From IMG/VR virus record IMGVR_UViG_3300032087_005129: DNA of 64,000 bases. One strand, given 5' to 3'. This stretch comes from a virus. Both the position numbers and the translations under genes were made by a program. Position 1 is the stretch's first letter. Each line of letters opens with the position of its first letter. Under the pieces are notes generated by a model, which made no database searches, was not told the DNA's origin, and saw nothing but the letters and a program-made list of their open reading frames with translations. Below, one piece after another: positions 19,237 to 62,131 of this stretch.

Positions 19237-20355
19237 ATGAGCGAAGAAAGAGACAGAGCATTACTAGAACAATTTAATGCAGATTCTCCAGTCAATGTAT
19301 TAGAATATCCACTAAGAGGTCTTGGCGCGAAAGACAACGGCTTAGGTCATCACATTATGTTTGATATTCTTGAGATCGACGGGTTGTGCTTTGAGACTAT
19401 TAGCCAATCATTCACCTCTGCCGAGCAATCGTCTGTAACAGAAAACGAAAATAGTCAAGTTCTAGATGGCCTTTCAGTAGAAGATGCACAGCAAACCGCA
19501 AACGAAACGGGTCTCGCTGGTATCGCAAATAGCATTACACAAGGAGGATCACTAAGAAATCTATCCTCGTGGCTCTCTAATTTTGGTCAAAATTTTAGTG
19601 GGCTTGCAGCAGAATCTTCAAGACTTAAGCAAGAAGGTAGAAATCTTAAAGGTAGCATTGCACTATATGTTCCTGAGGCAGTGAATGTCGCCTATGGATT
19701 AGACTGGCAAATGAGTGATGATATGGTCGGTGTCGCTCTCATTGAAGACGTATTCAAACTTATACAATCATCTGGTTCAGGAACAGAAAAGATTGCAAAG
19801 TCGATTGGTGAGCAAATAGCAATTCAAGCAGCACCAAATGTTATTGATTCGGTGGGTAGTCTCGTTGGTGTTAACTTCGGTGGACAAGCAGCAGTTGAGT
19901 CTCTTACACGAAAGGTTCGAAACCCACATATTGCATTCTTGTTCAAAGGTGTCAATCAAAGAACATTCTCTTTTGAGTTTAATTTTACACCACAAAATTT
20001 TGAAGAAGCAAAAGTCACATACAACATTATTAAAATGTTCAAGAAACACTCCATGCCTGAACTTGATGATAGTAAAAGGTTTTTAAGATATCCATCGTTG
20101 TTTGAGATCTCTTACTTTTCATCGGCAGGAGTGGAGAATACTTTTGTTAATAAACTAAAACCATCTGTGATAACAGGTATTAACGTCGATTACTCTGGTG
20201 GAGGAGTATATTCAACCTTTGATGAGCAACCGAGTGGCTTTGTAGACATGGATGGCAAAACGGTTAACGGTGCACCACCAACAAATGTAAAACTAACACT
20301 CACATTCTCAGAAACCAGCCTTCTCACCAGAGGCGATATTGACGAGGGGTATTAA
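19237..20355 (+). CDS. gp48: Baseplate tail-tube cap gp48
   Basis: I.LYVP, NP....LFKG...RTFSF.F.FTP....EA, F..YPS.F.I, L.F.ET..LTR. Confidence 0.88.
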   Translation: MSEERDRALLEQFNADSPVNVLEYPLRGLGAKDNGLGHHIMFDILEIDGLCFETISQSFTSAEQSSVTENENSQVLDGLSVEDAQQTANETGLAGIANSITQGGSLRNLSSWLSNFGQNFSGLAAESSRLKQEGRNLKGSIALYVPEAVNVAYGLDWQMSDDMVGVALIEDVFKLIQSSGSGTEKIAKSIGEQIAIQAAPNVIDSVGSLVGVNFGGQAAVESLTRKVRNPHIAFLFKGVNQRTFSFEFNFTPQNFEEAKVTYNIIKMFKKHSMPELDDSKRFLRYPSLFEISYFSSAGVENTFVNKLKPSVITGINVDYSGGGVYSTFDEQPSGFVDMDGKTVNGAPPTNVKLTLTFSETSLLTRGDIDEGY

Positions 20356-21161
20356 TGTCATACTTTCGTAAAAACTTTCCAAAGACTGCGTATGATATGT
20401 TTGGCGACAAGAAGTATCGTCGTGCTGTTGATATTGTAAAAAGTTTTACTTTATCAGATCAAGTCAAGCAAGAGTCATCAGTCTTTTTTAATTATATCGT
20501 TAAAGATAGTGATCGACCAGATACCATTGCCACAAAAATTTATGGTCGACCAGATCTTCACTGGCTAGTTCTTTTTGCAAATGACATTCAAAACATTTAT
20601 GAAGAATGGCCTAAAGATCAGGTTGAACTAGAAAACTTTGTTTCGAAGAGATATCCTGGTAAGTCTTTATTCATAACACCAGTCAATACAAACATTGCAA
20701 AGAAAACGTATGCCATTGGTAGTCATGTAACTGGACCATACTCTTCTAGTTTGGGTGTTACTGCGCAAGCAACTGTGATTGGTTGGGATATAAATTTTGA
20801 TGAGTTAATTGTTGATTCTATCACAGGCTCTTTTTCTGCGAGTGATACGATTGAAATAATCTCTACAGATAACGCTGTTAGACAAGAGACAGTTAATAAA
20901 GTCGTTGACACTACCGATGCGGTTCATCACTTTGTAGACTCCTCAGGAAACTATCAAGATCCTTATGGCGCAACATCTGTTGCTGGCACGAGTTTAGATT
21001 TGGTTGAGGGTTACAAACAAGGCACGTTGCAATCTTTTTACAATATTCGAACAAACAGAGAATATGAAGAAGAGGAAAATGAAACGAAAAGAGGAATCAA
21101 ACTGGTAAAAAGTTCATTCGTTGAGCCAATTTTGAAAGATTTGGATAGTCTGTTTACATGA
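20355..21161 (+). CDS. gp53: Baseplate wedge subunit gp53
   Basis: MSYF, Y.VKD.DRPD.IA..IYG....HWLVL.AN.I....EWP, VHHF, TN.EYE..ENE.KR.I. Confidence 0.9.
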   Translation: MSYFRKNFPKTAYDMFGDKKYRRAVDIVKSFTLSDQVKQESSVFFNYIVKDSDRPDTIATKIYGRPDLHWLVLFANDIQNIYEEWPKDQVELENFVSKRYPGKSLFITPVNTNIAKKTYAIGSHVTGPYSSSLGVTAQATVIGWDINFDELIVDSITGSFSASDTIEIISTDNAVRQETVNKVVDTTDAVHHFVDSSGNYQDPYGATSVAGTSLDLVEGYKQGTLQSFYNIRTNREYEEEENETKRGIKLVKSSFVEPILKDLDSLFT

Positions 21162-60410: not shown

Positions 60411-61328
60411 ATGGGCACCAATCACTTTTTTAATCATTTTAATAACTCAGATGAACAACGCCTAATTGAAGATATTGTCGCAGAGATGATTAAATATGGT
60501 GGTGTGGATTGTTTCTACATGCCAAGAACATTTGTTGACATTGATACCATCTTTGGTGAAGACCTAGTATCACAATTTAACGATGCGTTTCCTCTTGAGT
60601 TATATGTTTCAAGTGTTGATGGTTTTGAAGGTGATGGAGACTTCATATCAAAGTTTGGGTTAGAGGTTCGAGACACAGTAAAACTCATACTATCAAAGTA
60701 CAGGTTTAATCAAGAAACAGGTAGAGACAAACCACAAGAGGGTGATCTCATTTTCTTTCCTTTCAACGATGGAATTTTTGAGATTAAGTTTGTCGAGGAT
60801 GAAGTACCTTTCTATCAGTTTGGTCAAAACTATGTCTTTGAAATATCGTGCGAATTGTTTACACCAAGTCAAGAAGACTTCGATACTGGCCTTGATGAAA
60901 TTGATGACATCATTAACGAAGAGCAATTCAATCTTACACTTCTTCTAGACTCAACAACAGGCAACAACGTAGGTTTCGAAAAAGGTCAAATTGTTTATCA
61001 GTTTCCTGCAGGCGGTGCCACTGGTGCTACAAGCACAGACTCAGCACAAGCAGAAATCTTCTCTGTTCTAGGCACTGGAGCCACAACAACAGAACTCACT
61101 CTTATAGATACTAAGGGTCTTTGGAAAGCAGGACTCAGCGGTGCGAGCATGTTCCATGTGGCAACTGTAGACAATACATCTTTCAGAGGTATTACGGGTA
61201 TCGTAAGAAGTCTAGAGGTTACAGGAGCAGGCAACGCAATTACATCAGATGCAGACAACCAGTTTATTGAGGAGTATGCGGATAGTTTTGTAGACTTTAC
61301 AGATACTAATCCGTTTGGAACATTCTAA
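60411..61328 (+). CDS. gp14: Neck protein gp14
   Basis: EQ.L.ED...E.IK..G....Y.PR, GF.G.GD..SKFGL, P.EGDLI.FP, FEIKFVE, DF...NPFG. Confidence 0.95.
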   Translation: MGTNHFFNHFNNSDEQRLIEDIVAEMIKYGGVDCFYMPRTFVDIDTIFGEDLVSQFNDAFPLELYVSSVDGFEGDGDFISKFGLEVRDTVKLILSKYRFNQETGRDKPQEGDLIFFPFNDGIFEIKFVEDEVPFYQFGQNYVFEISCELFTPSQEDFDTGLDEIDDIINEEQFNLTLLLDSTTGNNVGFEKGQIVYQFPAGGATGATSTDSAQAEIFSVLGTGATTTELTLIDTKGLWKAGLSGASMFHVATVDNTSFRGITGIVRSLEVTGAGNAITSDADNQFIEEYADSFVDFTDTNPFGTF

Positions 61329-62131
61329 TGTTTGGACAATCACAAGCCTTTTATCATAGCACTATACGAAAAGCAGTTGCCGGTTTTGGTACTCTGTTCA
61401 ACGATATCTACATAAAAAGATTTAACACTGATGGCACAGAAAAAGAAAGATTCAAGATACCTCTAGCGTATGCTGCAAAACAAAAGTTTATACAAAAACT
61501 TCGACCAACTACAGGCCAATTAAAGTTTTCTTTGCCCCGAATGGGTTTTGAAGTCAGTTCAATGACTTACGATCCTCTTAGAAAACTGAACACTCTTCAA
61601 AAACGTGTATCTTACGATAGCAACACGCAAATGAACTTTCGCCATGAGAGAGTGCCTTACGATGTTGAATTTAATTTATACATCGCTGCAAACAATATTG
61701 ATGATGGCTTGCAGATACTTGAACAAATACTACCTTTCTTCTCACCAGAGTTTACTTTGACATTTAACTCTTTAGATGGTCTTGACGAAAAAACTGATTT
61801 ACCAATTACACTTACTGGTGTCACATTCGAGGATAATTATGAGGGTGGTTTTGAAGAAGATAGACTGATTACCATATCTCTCTCGTTTTCTGCGAAAGTA
61901 TTCCTTGCTGGCCCCGCTAAGAAATCTGAGGTCATTCGAACTGCGATTGTTGATATCAACGAGTTTAAAGATGAGTTTACAACCGCATCTGGTACCACAC
62001 ACTCGATACTTGAAAAGATCACTGTTGGACTTACGACTGGCATTACATCAGGACTCGGACTTGAAGTTGGGGCAACAGCACCTTATGTTATTACTATAGA
62101 GAATTATCAAACCGATGGAATCACACAATAA
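61328..62131 (+). CDS. gp15: Tail sheath stabiliser/completion protein gp15
   Basis: FYH.TIRK.V..FGTLFN.I, PLAY..KQKF, LPRM.FE, D.LQI.EQILPFF.P. Confidence 0.95.
   Translation: MFGQSQAFYHSTIRKAVAGFGTLFNDIYIKRFNTDGTEKERFKIPLAYAAKQKFIQKLRPTTGQLKFSLPRMGFEVSSMTYDPLRKLNTLQKRVSYDSNTQMNFRHERVPYDVEFNLYIAANNIDDGLQILEQILPFFSPEFTLTFNSLDGLDEKTDLPITLTGVTFEDNYEGGFEEDRLITISLSFSAKVFLAGPAKKSEVIRTAIVDINEFKDEFTTASGTTHSILEKITVGLTTGITSGLGLEVGATAPYVITIENYQTDGITQ

Follow-up and report, generated by a model that had tools for sequence, protein, structure and literature searches.

The DNA analysed here is a 64,000-nt stretch of a viral genome (IMG/VR record IMGVR_UViG_3300032087_005129; hereafter the window), which would represent the structural module of a T4-like aquatic myophage that has not been cultured. 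A previous sequence-only reading had noticed that a short G-x-[T/S]-[G/A] motif recurs through nearly all of its tail, baseplate and neck proteins, and had proposed this motif as the acceptor sequon of a phage-encoded O-glycosyltransferase. This raises the question of whether the motif is more frequent than composition predicts and, if so, which enzyme might recognize it.

Over-representation of a short Gly-Thr word in virion proteins

The strict motif G-[AVLIFSTY]-[TS]-[AG] was counted in 27 virion-module ORFs (11,825 aa) after masking of collagen tracts, defined as runs of at least four G-x-x triplets, which are trivially motif-dense (58 copies in ORF 25149–27296 and 22 in 55991–59158). Outside these tracts, 44 copies were observed, while within-protein shuffles gave an expectation of 16.7 (z = 7.0) and local shuffles over 10–20 aa one of 19.8–20.5 (z = 5.8 even at 10 aa). 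Moreover, the motif ranks first among all 24 orderings of the same four residue classes, followed by orderings with 35, 34 and 33 copies. The Gly-aliphatic-Thr/Ser-Gly/Ala word is thus truly over-represented in the outer virion proteins of the phage, and since codon usage at the motif sites equals background, the enrichment acts at the amino-acid level. In non-virion proteins (8,430 aa), three copies were found at 2.5–2.8 expected; hence, the rarity noticed earlier in replication and terminase proteins is real but simply at the level predicted by composition. Comparing the observed densities of 0.37 and 0.04 copies per 100 aa in virion and non-virion proteins, respectively, with the predicted values of about 0.14 and 0.03, about half of this contrast on a log scale is due to composition, leaving an ordering-specific excess of 2.6-fold in virion proteins.

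The earlier observation holds in part. Each of the 25 example strings it quoted can be found in the ORFs named, although SITGS, YGATS, SITAG and AGVT do not match the motif as it was formulated. The wording "nearly all" was overstated, as 13 of the 27 ORFs bear the motif (20355, 24307, 25149, 32721, 35056, 36873, 39207, 44470, 47664, 49409, 55991, 60411 and 61328), whereas the other 14 have no strict copy, among them gp48, the 21158 tail protein, gp5, PAAR, gp6, gp13, 27300 and 28457. Motif-bearing proteins outside the collagen-like fibres include:

24307–25149, + strand: ORF of 280 aa with no assigned function, upstream of the first fibre; 3 copies
35056–36849, + strand: gp7-like baseplate wedge protein; 3 copies
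36873–39194, + strand: gp8-like baseplate wedge protein; 6 dispersed copies at aa 219–550
39207–44258, + strand: VrlC/DUF4815-like structural protein of 1683 aa; 4 copies
44470–47655, + strand: fibre or collar-domain protein of 1061 aa; 9 dispersed copies
49409–49744, + strand: small beta-rich protein of 111 aa (PHROG "L-shaped tail fiber protein assembly"); 1 copy
60411–62131, + strand: neck proteins gp14 (3 copies, aa 202–263) and gp15 (1 copy, aa 248)

Within these proteins, motif sites concentrate in lineage-specific extensions and insertions. All copies of the gp8-like protein lie outside the conserved Gp8 N-terminal region, and those of gp14 and gp15 are confined to C-terminal extensions past the conserved Pfam domains.

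A predicted GT2-TPR glycosyltransferase beside a collagen-like fibre

A candidate enzyme is encoded directly upstream of one of two genes for collagen-like fibres:

54730–55953, + strand: predicted GT2-TPR protein glycosyltransferase, SgtA/GmaR/SunS-like (Pfam, BLASTP, hhalign, AF2/Foldseek)
55991–59158, + strand: tail-fibre-like protein directly downstream of the glycosyltransferase gene (Pfam Collagen PF01391 at 1.9e-7; PHROG tail-fibre and collagen-like families)
25149–27296, + strand: second such fibre, first in gene order (sequence, composition, PHROG collagen-like tail-fibre families)

The fibre 55991–59158 carries a (G-x-T)22 tract at aa 429–494 (nt 57275–57472) with Thr at the Y position of 19 of the 22 triplets, besides 7 dispersed motif copies. 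In 25149–27296 (20% G, 23% T), a 201-aa (G-T/A/V/N-T)n tract with GPQ interruptions spans aa 30–230 (nt 25236–25838), and Thr occupies the Y position in 57 of 67 triplets.

The putative glycosyltransferase combines a GT-A domain, in which the motifs DTGSTDGT and D120-A-D122-E are invariant, with a helical, TPR-like domain at the C-terminus (PF00535 at 3.8e-11, PF13704 at 3.6e-10, TPR_14 weakly); the mean column identity in its alignment is 66%. Its best PDB sequence match is GmaR (2.9e-9), followed by SunS and ThuS, and the latter two are also the top Foldseek matches of the AF2 model (pLDDT 89.7) over the full length (E 7.6e-15, 404 aligned columns). All three belong to GT2, bind their peptide or protein through a helical domain and act in the cytoplasm; GmaR is the flagellin O-GlcNAc transferase of Listeria, SunS and ThuS are S/O-glycosyltransferases of glycocins. 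Their substrates, flagellin and small bacteriocin peptides, respectively, are unlike the one proposed here, and none of these enzymes is known to be paired with collagen-like proteins or encoded by a phage. A cytoplasmic protein O-glycosyltransferase can be predicted for 54730–55953, in whose model neither a signal peptide nor a transmembrane segment is evident.

The closest parallel to the gene pair is found in Clostridioides difficile, where sgtA lies immediately upstream of bclA3 encoding a collagen-like exosporium glycoprotein, and SgtA adds beta-O-GlcNAc to Thr/Ser in single-site 17-mers with G-P-T-G, G-A-T-G and G-A-S-G (PMC7157674), supporting the idea that the phage motif is a plausible acceptor. 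The identical arrangement was confirmed in the C. difficile sequence, in which the BclA3 triplets are G-P/A-T. Phage enzyme and SgtA are homologous (BLASTP E 2e-23; hhalign probability 99.4%), with the match extending over the GT-A domain into the beginning of the helical one. However, they are just 27% identical over 293 aa and differ in length (407 versus 358 aa), the phage pair is located inside the tail-fibre/neck gene block of a lytic-type T4-like phage, and its substrate would be a virion fibre instead of a spore-surface protein; both its activity and its donor sugar are inferred. In BclA of Bacillus anthracis and other (GPT)n glycoproteins, O-linked glycans are likewise carried by Thr at position Y of collagen triplets (Pro-poor or GPT) that resemble the phage tracts, albeit other enzymes assemble the BclA glycans, which are oligosaccharides of rhamnose and anthrose. 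Genomes of the Bacillus cereus group (L183, L186, L193 and L197) contain homologues of the phage enzyme. Phage-encoded glycosyltransferases acting on the phage's own virion proteins, as proposed here, reportedly occur in mycobacteriophages (Freeman et al., 2023, Cell Host Microbe, as cited in PMC12801897). Those systems belong to siphoviruses of Actinobacteria, use different glycosyltransferases and target capsid and tail-tube subunits at their C-terminal extensions; neither a collagen-like substrate nor a G-x-T-G acceptor is known to be involved there.

The pairing is conserved. In about 52 of 68 viral loci, the GT2-TPR gene is directly upstream of a collagen-fibre homologue although its upstream neighbour varies, and with 47–61% identity it is better conserved than the neck protein gp14 (38–41%). 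In bacterial loci from many phyla, a (G-x-T)n ORF lies within 6 kb of the homologue in 23 of 80 cases, 14 of them having it as the adjacent ORF. With an over-represented motif and an SgtA-like enzyme beside a collagen-like fibre, sugar-coated fibres are likely. Following the model of SgtA O-GlcNAcylating the GPT/GAT repeats of BclA3, the primary substrates would be Thr residues of the (G-x-T)n tracts, in the downstream fibre and probably also in the (G-T-T)n fibre 25149–27296. The dispersed G-[A/L/I/V]-[T>S]-[G/A] word would correspond to the same minimal acceptor as the collagen-tract Thr and has been built up in the clade possessing the enzyme, so some copies may serve as secondary glycosylation sites. 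This latter modification is plausible but phylogenetically confounded, and we consider it rather unlikely. Taken together, a GT2-TPR enzyme acting on collagen tracts, with some dispersed copies as secondary sites, is our best explanation, held tentatively at somewhat less than an even chance.

Distribution of the motif among related phages

Contigs or genomes with and without a homologue of the GT2-TPR gene (GT+ and GT–) were compared. Genome-wide, the motif reaches 1.96–2.60 times the expected count in six related GT+ contigs. In the GT– genomes of T4, S-PM2, S-SM2, HTVC008M, Mosig and Melnitz, it is at 1.00–1.56 times (1.1 in T4), level with other orderings there; relatives lacking the glycosyltransferase thus lack the enrichment. 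Among 127 non-redundant proteins taken from other GT-bearing loci, the motif occurs 389 times versus 131 expected (z = 20), its ordering again ranking first. In the residue profile from pooled GT+ genomes, enrichments are 2.8x for G at position 1, 5.4x (L), 4.3x (A), 3.0x (I) and 2.8x (V) at the aliphatic position 2, and 2.7x (G) and 3.0x (A) at position 4. At position 3, T (3.6x) is preferred over S (1.9x), in agreement with the proposed Thr/Ser-centred motif, and every other residue tested is at most 1.3x (at most 1.2x for non-Thr/Ser in another set with all 20 residues scanned). In the sister clade, corresponding values are 1.2x, 0.5–1.8x, 1.3x (T) and 1.1x (S), and 1.0–1.4x for positions 1 to 4.

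The excess resides in outer virion proteins, with observed/expected counts in GT+ versus GT– genomes of 23/5.5 versus 7/6.1 for the sheath, 26/4.7 versus 7/7.3 for the gp7 family, 42/5.4 versus 15/5.6 for the gp8 family and 11/1.9 versus 2/1.2 for the gp15 family, while internal proteins have almost no copies in either group. Orthologs of 39207–44258 in GT+ genomes have 4–10 copies each. Across the whole enzyme-bearing clade, the dispersed word has accumulated about 2.5–3 fold over composition in fibres, gp7, gp8, the VrlC-like protein, outer sheath domains and the segments by which gp14 and gp15 are extended at the C-terminus.

However, all T4-like contigs with the GT fall into a single clade (support 96), sister to a GT-lacking pelagiphage/cyanophage clade. 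The motif excess is a property of this one clade, and the co-variation of motif and enzyme, although indeed observed, amounts to a single evolutionary contrast. Shared ancestry alone could explain the coincidence, and it is a serious possibility that the enzyme acts on collagen tracts only while the dispersed excess is a structural or evolutionary idiom of the clade's outer virion proteins unrelated to glycosylation, such as a turn or strand-start element that recurs in beta-rich domains specific to the clade and is inherited with the proteins. Besides the clustering of sites in lineage-specific segments, this is favoured by the jumbo phage Tunturi_5 (308 kb), the one independent lineage examined, whose sole collagen ORF (G-P/A-T) is, in line with the gene pairing, 3.8 kb from a GT homologue, yet which shows no dispersed enrichment (1.03x genome-wide, 0.96x in G/T/S-rich ORFs). 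Six other divergent viral contigs with a GT homologue have neither collagen neighbour nor enrichment, though these samples are small. Moreover, some sites are conserved positions: homologues of the small beta-sandwich protein 49409 in the clade share S-G-Y-T-A and I-T-G-x-T-G sites, the former having a near-equivalent S-G-T-C-A in GT– homologues, and among the sheath sites, which map onto T4 gp18 residues 94–351, the one at T4 position 179 is common to five GT+ sheaths.

On the other hand, the fibres and baseplates of T4, S-PM2 and pelagiphage are equally beta-rich and G/T/S-rich but have no excess, and the residue profile fits the experimentally defined SgtA acceptor. Motif columns are mostly singletons in ortholog alignments (46 of 67 for 44470–47655) and largely unconserved among orthologs below 70% identity; the gp14 sites are kept in relatives of 75–92% identity and not in distant ones. 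BLAST found no domain shared among motif segments, and no Gly periodicity at –3 or +6 was found around dispersed sites, so these are not collagen remnants. All in all, the proposed sequon is partly supported.

Host targets, the sugar cassette and composition

An action of the GT2-TPR enzyme, as an auxiliary product of a hypervariable slot, on a host molecule during infection (a glycan or a surface protein, whether collagen-like or not), with an unmodified virion and an unrelated motif, appears improbable. In relatives, the slot between fibre genes and gp13 harbours unrelated cargo, which in HTVC008M consists of a ferrochelatase and four 2OG-Fe(II) oxygenases; the homologue of one GT+ contig, G001, is situated amid non-structural genes and not near structural ones, and 57 of 80 bacterial homologues, like the six viral contigs, have no nearby collagen gene. 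Conversely, the retained position upstream of the fibre gene, the conservation above gp14, the model devoid of evident export signals and the sgtA-bclA3 arrangement all argue against an auxiliary host-directed role. For the preferred reading, the slot would be one in which the late-promoter-like element GATAAATA precedes fibre genes.

This element is also found at both junctions of a cassette whose insertion separates the 49409 gene from the GT2-TPR gene:

49771–54686, + strand: sugar-activation and GT61 cassette (Pfam and NCBIfam matches; GC 34.9%, below flanks)
49771, + strand: ORF without assigned function
50424, + strand: PRK/uridine-kinase and class II aldolase fusion (Pfam/NCBIfam)
51800, + strand: NTP-transferase (Pfam/NCBIfam)
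52608, + strand: HAD-like ORF (Pfam/NCBIfam)
52892, + strand: NTP_transf_3 (Pfam/NCBIfam)
53610, + strand: GT61 (PF04577 at 7.6e-19)

With its GT61, two nucleotidyltransferases and kinase-aldolase fusion inside the structural module behind a late-promoter-like element, the cassette could be taken, as the earlier wording implies, for the set of enzymes whose sequon left its mark on the virion proteins. This is effectively refuted, as relatives without it (gp14 75–92% identical) show the same excess of 2.5–4.5x; in L007–L011 and L013, the 49409 homologue abuts the GT2-TPR gene directly. Furthermore, S-SM2 possesses a GT61 homologue (48% identity), within a large LPS/heptose island that might rather point to host-directed roles, without order-specific enrichment (1.56x for the motif versus 1.35x for other orderings). 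Among the relatives compared, the cassette is seen only in this window and, also from its low GC, looks like a recent insertion, a later add-on which may supply or extend the glycan. The earlier expectation of a phage-encoded glycosyltransferase is thus borne out by a protein-type enzyme beside a (G-x-T)n fibre, with the GT2-TPR gene and not the whole cassette being the relevant one.

Finally, although G/T/S/A richness predicts an about 4–5 fold higher density in virion than in replication proteins and the remaining orderings of these classes show a mild elevation (1.1–1.8x), a by-product of composition, local low complexity or post-hoc motif picking is refuted by the shuffles, by the first rank of the ordering in two independent protein sets and by six other T4-like phages, whose proteins of similar composition show no excess.

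Motif frequency in the virion proteins

According to ORF calling and PHROG/Pfam searches, the window represents a T4-like myophage structural module, in which ORFs are named here by their start coordinate. No close relative of this module was found by megablast against 50,697 phage records; the phage is without close cultured relative, and INPHARED contains no member of its clade. Among cultured phages, gp6 is most similar to that of the pelagiphages HTVC008M and Mosig and the Methylophilales phage Melnitz (41-42% identity).

Gene order of the structural module (ORF calling and PHROG/Pfam searches).
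19213: gp48
20355: gp53
21158: tail protein
23041: gp5
24044: PAAR protein
24307: ORF without assigned function
25149: collagen-like fibre, followed by several ORFs without assigned function
32721: gp25
33101: gp6
35056: gp7-like protein
36873: gp8-like protein
39207: VrlC/DUF4815-like giant protein
44470 and 47664: fibre-like proteins
49409: small beta-rich protein, directly before the sugar-gene cassette
49771-54686: sugar-gene cassette, between 49409 and the GT2-TPR gene
54730: GT2-TPR gene
55991: second collagen-like fibre
after 55991: gp13, gp14, gp15, terS and terL in that order (terL at 62557-63999)

The sequence-only reading had proposed that a short Thr/Ser-centred motif in these proteins is the acceptor sequon of an O-glycosyltransferase encoded by the phage, and that it is densely arrayed in the (G-x-T)n fibres. 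All strings cited as examples are present at the places named, but several of them do not fit the motif as defined, G-[AVLIFSTY]-[TS]-[AG]. With the collagen tracts masked before counting, 44 copies are found in the 11,825 residues of the 27 virion-module ORFs, versus 16.7 expected from within-protein shuffles (z 7.0) and about 20 from local shuffles of 10-20 residues (z 5.8). Moreover, when the same four residue classes are arranged in all 24 orderings, the proposed one ranks first with 44 copies, followed by orderings with 35, 34 and 33. Shuffles and ordering test thus confirm both over-representation and order specificity, i.e., an enrichment beyond Gly/Thr composition. The claim that the motif occurs in nearly all virion proteins was overstated, as it is present in 13 ORFs and absent in 14, the latter including gp48, gp5, gp6 and gp13. 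Its rarity outside the virion holds numerically, with 3 copies in 8,430 residues of replication, nucleotide-metabolism and terminase proteins, but 2.5-2.8 copies are expected from composition; the rarity is compositional and not a sign of avoidance. Likewise, non-virion proteins of phages with a homologue of the GT2-TPR glycosyltransferase (GT-bearing) gave no consistent signal of avoidance (0.7-1.8-fold versus 1.1-2.1-fold in phages lacking it).

As indirect evidence on solvent exposure of the sites, internal proteins are essentially free of motif copies, those of the sheath align to residues 94-351 of T4 gp18, which are the outer domains of this protein, and the copies in gp14 and gp15 are located in C-terminal extensions beyond the conserved Pfam domains. 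The AF2 model of the fibre-like protein 44470, built from a 17-sequence alignment, has a mean pLDDT of 43 and is unusable for exposure mapping.

Clade specificity of the motif

The motif excess in outer virion proteins is genuine and specific both to the residue order and to one clade. In complete T4-like genomes that lack the GT, the observed/expected ratio is 1.08-1.17 for T4, 1.00-1.06 for S-PM2, 1.23 for HTVC008M, 1.19 for Melnitz, 1.49 for Mosig and 1.56 for S-SM2, with other orderings averaging 1.21-1.35 and no order-specific excess. The window reaches 2.45 and its related contigs 1.96, 2.60, 2.36, 2.59 and 2.58, other orderings averaging 1.1-1.4 in GT-bearing contigs. Complete genomes were used because synteny alone is unreliable for calling a locus GT-lacking; comparison locus L027, labelled as such by synteny, encodes a homologue of 38% identity elsewhere on its contig. 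In 127 non-redundant fibre and neck proteins from GT-bearing contigs, a set that leaves out the close relatives of the window, 389 copies were observed versus 131 expected, and the proposed ordering is again the first of 24.

By position, enrichment is clear-cut in the GT-bearing clade and flat in its sister clade. Glycine at position 1 is enriched 2.8-fold versus 1.2-fold, and at position 2 the values are 5.4 versus 0.8 for Leu, 4.3 versus 1.8 for Ala, 3.0 versus 0.8 for Ile and 2.8 versus 0.5 for Val. Position 3 shows 3.6-fold versus 1.3-fold enrichment of Thr and 1.9-fold versus 1.1-fold of Ser, and position 4 shows 2.7-fold versus 1.0-fold of Gly and 3.0-fold versus 1.4-fold of Ala. The same holds within protein families, where observed/expected copies in GT-bearing versus GT-lacking members amount to 23/5.5 versus 7/6.1 (sheath), 26/4.7 versus 7/7.3 (gp7), 42/5.4 versus 15/5.6 (gp8) and 11/1.9 versus 2/1.2 (gp15). 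Tube, portal, gp5, gp6, gp25, gp48, gp53, gp13 and terL have essentially zero copies in both groups. A single terL copy occurs in 5 of 5 GT-lacking genomes and in none of the 6 GT-bearing ones (window included), numbers too small to interpret.

The six GT-bearing contigs (1.96-2.60-fold) and the six GT-lacking genomes (1.0-1.6-fold) represent the two sides of one clade split. In a tree of concatenated gp6, gp13, gp15 and terL, all GT-bearing contigs fall into one clade (support 96), which is sister to the pelagiphage/cyanophage clade. As enzyme presence and motif excess thus lie on one branch, their association is a single contrast. In the independent GT-bearing lineage of the jumbo phage Tunturi_5, a dispersed excess was not found, neither genome-wide (1.03-fold) nor in G/T/S-rich ORFs (0.96-fold), and IMG/VR relatives of its GT are in small, mostly non-structural contexts uninformative on motif excess. 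The huge phage LR745206 was not taken as a further independent lineage, since two in-frame TAA codons lie within its GT match. This GT2-TPR homologue (W07, LR745206.1 546372-547556, from a 635-kb uncultured phage) may have become a pseudogene, unless an alternative genetic code is in use.

The main rival to glycosylation is that the dispersed copies, i.e., those outside the collagen-like tracts, represent a clade-specific structural idiom. Some copies indeed occupy conserved structural positions, for which GT-lacking homologues have near-equivalents. On the other side, when orthologs of less than 70% identity are aligned by family, 39 of 63 motif columns are singletons for VrlC, 46 of 67 for 44470 and 45 of 91 for 55991, a measure inflated by alignment error in variable regions, so that motif density appears to be kept while positions turn over.

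The GT2-TPR enzyme and collagen-like fibres

Two glycosyltransferase genes are present in the window, GT61 and GT2-TPR. From fold, motifs and homology, the product of the latter (54730-55953) is predicted to be a GT2 enzyme of the SgtA/GmaR/SunS type. Its GT-A domain is recognized by PF00535 (3.8e-11) and PF13704 (3.6e-10), and the nucleotide-sugar binding motif DTGSTDGT as well as the DxD motif D120-A-D122-E are invariant in 17 homologues. The AF2 model (pLDDT 89.7) shows a Rossmann-like beta/alpha N-domain, while residues 207-406 are helical according to DSSP, forming a C-terminal TPR-like domain fused to GT-A; the Pfam TPR_14 match is weak (5.4e-4, below cutoff). With Foldseek, the model matches SunS and ThuS over its full length (E 7.6e-15 over 404 columns) and also TPR proteins, whereas ordinary GT-A enzymes are eight orders of magnitude worse than SunS and ThuS. 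By sequence, the closest solved relative is Listeria GmaR (2.9e-9), followed by SunS and ThuS. SgtA from Clostridioides difficile, whose gene was retrieved with its published primer, is related to the phage enzyme at a BLASTP E-value of 2e-23 and an hhalign probability of 99.4%. In total, 72 viral contigs encode GT2-TPR homologues of 47-84% identity. Comparison locus L314 (IMGVR_UViG_3300047539_000164) encodes at least four tandem full-length paralogs at 8287-18240, with 32-45% identity to the window protein.

In C. difficile, sgtA lies directly upstream of bclA3 (PMC7157674), an arrangement confirmed in the retrieved sequence. SgtA transfers beta-O-GlcNAc onto Thr of the GPT/GAT collagen repeats, also accepts Ser, and is active on single-site 17-mers containing G-P-T-G, G-A-T-G or G-A-S-G (PMC7157674). 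This acceptor corresponds to the motif in the phage virion proteins.

Both collagen-like fibres of the window possess an uninterrupted G-x-y run of sufficient length for a triple helix, at aa 30-230 in 25149-27296 and at aa 429-494 (PF01391, 1.9e-7) in 55991-59158, the latter with 22 triplets, 19 of them with Thr in Y. The latter fibre gene follows GT2-TPR at a distance of only 38 nt, and its homologue is located directly after GT2-TPR in about 52 of 68 viral loci, while on the upstream side the adjacent gene may be 49409-like, 8436-like or VrlC/44255-like. In about 14 loci (L016, L018, L089, L100-L111, L118, L128), GT2-TPR is followed by an ORF of about 263 aa, in the place of the collagen fibre, and then by gp13. 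Beyond this clade, 80 bacterial loci from Myxococcota, Chlamydiota, Actinomycetota, Bacillota, Bacteroidota, Acidobacteriota, Chloroflexota and Proteobacteria were compared, and in 23 of them a (G-x-T)n ORF lies no more than 6 kb from a full-length GT homologue, the two being direct neighbours in 14. In Tunturi_5, an unrelated phage of 308 kb, the sole collagen-bearing ORF encodes a tail fibre, in which eight G-P/A-T tracts occur, and lies 3.8 kb from the GT homologue.

By analogy with SgtA, the (G-x-T)n collagen-like fibres are probably glycosylated by the GT2-TPR enzyme. The proposed role of a Thr-centred acceptor for a phage O-glycosyltransferase receives strong but indirect support for the collagen tracts; for the dispersed copies, glycosylation is a plausible but tentative reading. 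Possibly, but with clear reservation, a whole clade of uncultured aquatic T4-like myophages uses an SgtA-like O-glycosyltransferase whose acceptor G-aliphatic-Thr/Ser-Gly/Ala has been seeded by selection over the virion surface. The enzyme would act in the cytoplasm on this four-residue acceptor, which would be spread over exposed fibres, baseplate periphery, sheath and neck with rapid positional turnover, and the phage genome would then encode a glycan coat for the virion, in which the collagen-like fibres form dense glycan arrays.

In a widespread group of environmental T4-like phages, with more than 70 contigs in IMG/VR, the gene directly upstream of the one for a collagen-like tail fibre is homologous to a proven collagen-Thr O-GlcNAc transferase, and such a pairing of enzyme and collagen is seen again in bacteria of many phyla, which suggests as an annotation rule that the large unnamed 'GT2 + TPR' family represents glycosyltransferases of collagen-like proteins. 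A literature search did not reveal a paper describing glycosylation of phage collagen fibres, and to our knowledge phage-encoded virion glycosylation has been experimentally shown so far only in some mycobacteriophages. Should the dispersed motif be used, phage proteomes would show a readable sequon signature, the first of this type in bacteriophages, with bearing on receptor recognition, virion stability, protease and grazing resistance, and with relevance to phage-display or therapeutic phage design. If it is not used, a four-residue word of one clade still wants a structural explanation.

The GT61 cassette and further alternatives

The candidate enzyme is the SgtA-like GT2-TPR and not the GT61 cassette. 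The GT61 ORF (53610-54686; PF04577, 68.7 bits versus a cutoff of 27, E 7.6e-19) is without sequence relative in the PDB and has homologues, at 48-50% identity, only in the cyanophages S-SM2 and Bellamy. It is accompanied by a PRK-aldolase fusion, two nucleotidyltransferases and a HAD-like ORF. GT61 and these companions are absent from IMG/VR relatives with 75-92% identical gp14, the GC content of the cassette is 34.9% versus about 41% in the flanks, and a late-promoter-like GATAAATA element is present at both junctions (49745-49775 and 54690-54730), all of which argues for a recent insertion. In the cassette-free relatives, the 49409 homologue adjoins the GT2-TPR gene, and comparison loci L009 and L013 show a single C/TATAAATA element, then GGAG and ATG, upstream of GT2-TPR. 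The 5-kb cassette resembles a moron that entered at a promoter and, being recent, cannot account for a clade-wide motif. As the responsible enzyme set it was also rejected because S-SM2 has a GT61 homologue, located inside a large LPS-type island, but no enrichment.

The slot between fibre genes and gp13 is occupied by the GT cassette in the window but in HTVC008M (L001, 39403-42682) by opposite-strand genes for four 2OG-Fe(II) oxygenases and a ferrochelatase; lying beside fibre genes, these hydroxylases may represent a further set that modifies fibres.

Three further explanations were ruled out: a DNA-level motif, since synonymous codon usage at motif positions equals background (Ser is encoded by TCN and AGY), which indicates selection on the peptide; degenerate collagen remnants, as positions -3 and +6 show no enrichment of Gly and the copies are thus not broken triplets; and, at BLAST sensitivity, a shared mobile domain, the 44 motif-centred segments being without significant cross-protein similarity. 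Homologies within the genome detected by BLAST are limited to the pairs 27300/28457 and 29962/30972 and to a collar-type domain of 44470 and 55991. The first pair (27300-28457 and 28457-29617) consists of tandem paralogs with 37% identity over 393 aa and the second (29962-30990 and 30972-31991) of tandem paralogs with 33.5% identity over 364 aa; neither pair has PHROG or Pfam matches or motif copies. The domain common to 44470-47655 (aa 510-650) and 55991-59158 (aa 59-197) shows 29% identity (E 8e-8) and overlaps the Pfam phage tail Collar domain in 44470. Upstream of gp48, the minus-strand ORFs 17385-18284, 18175-18777 and 18770-19261 overlap, two of which were dropped in greedy gene calling.
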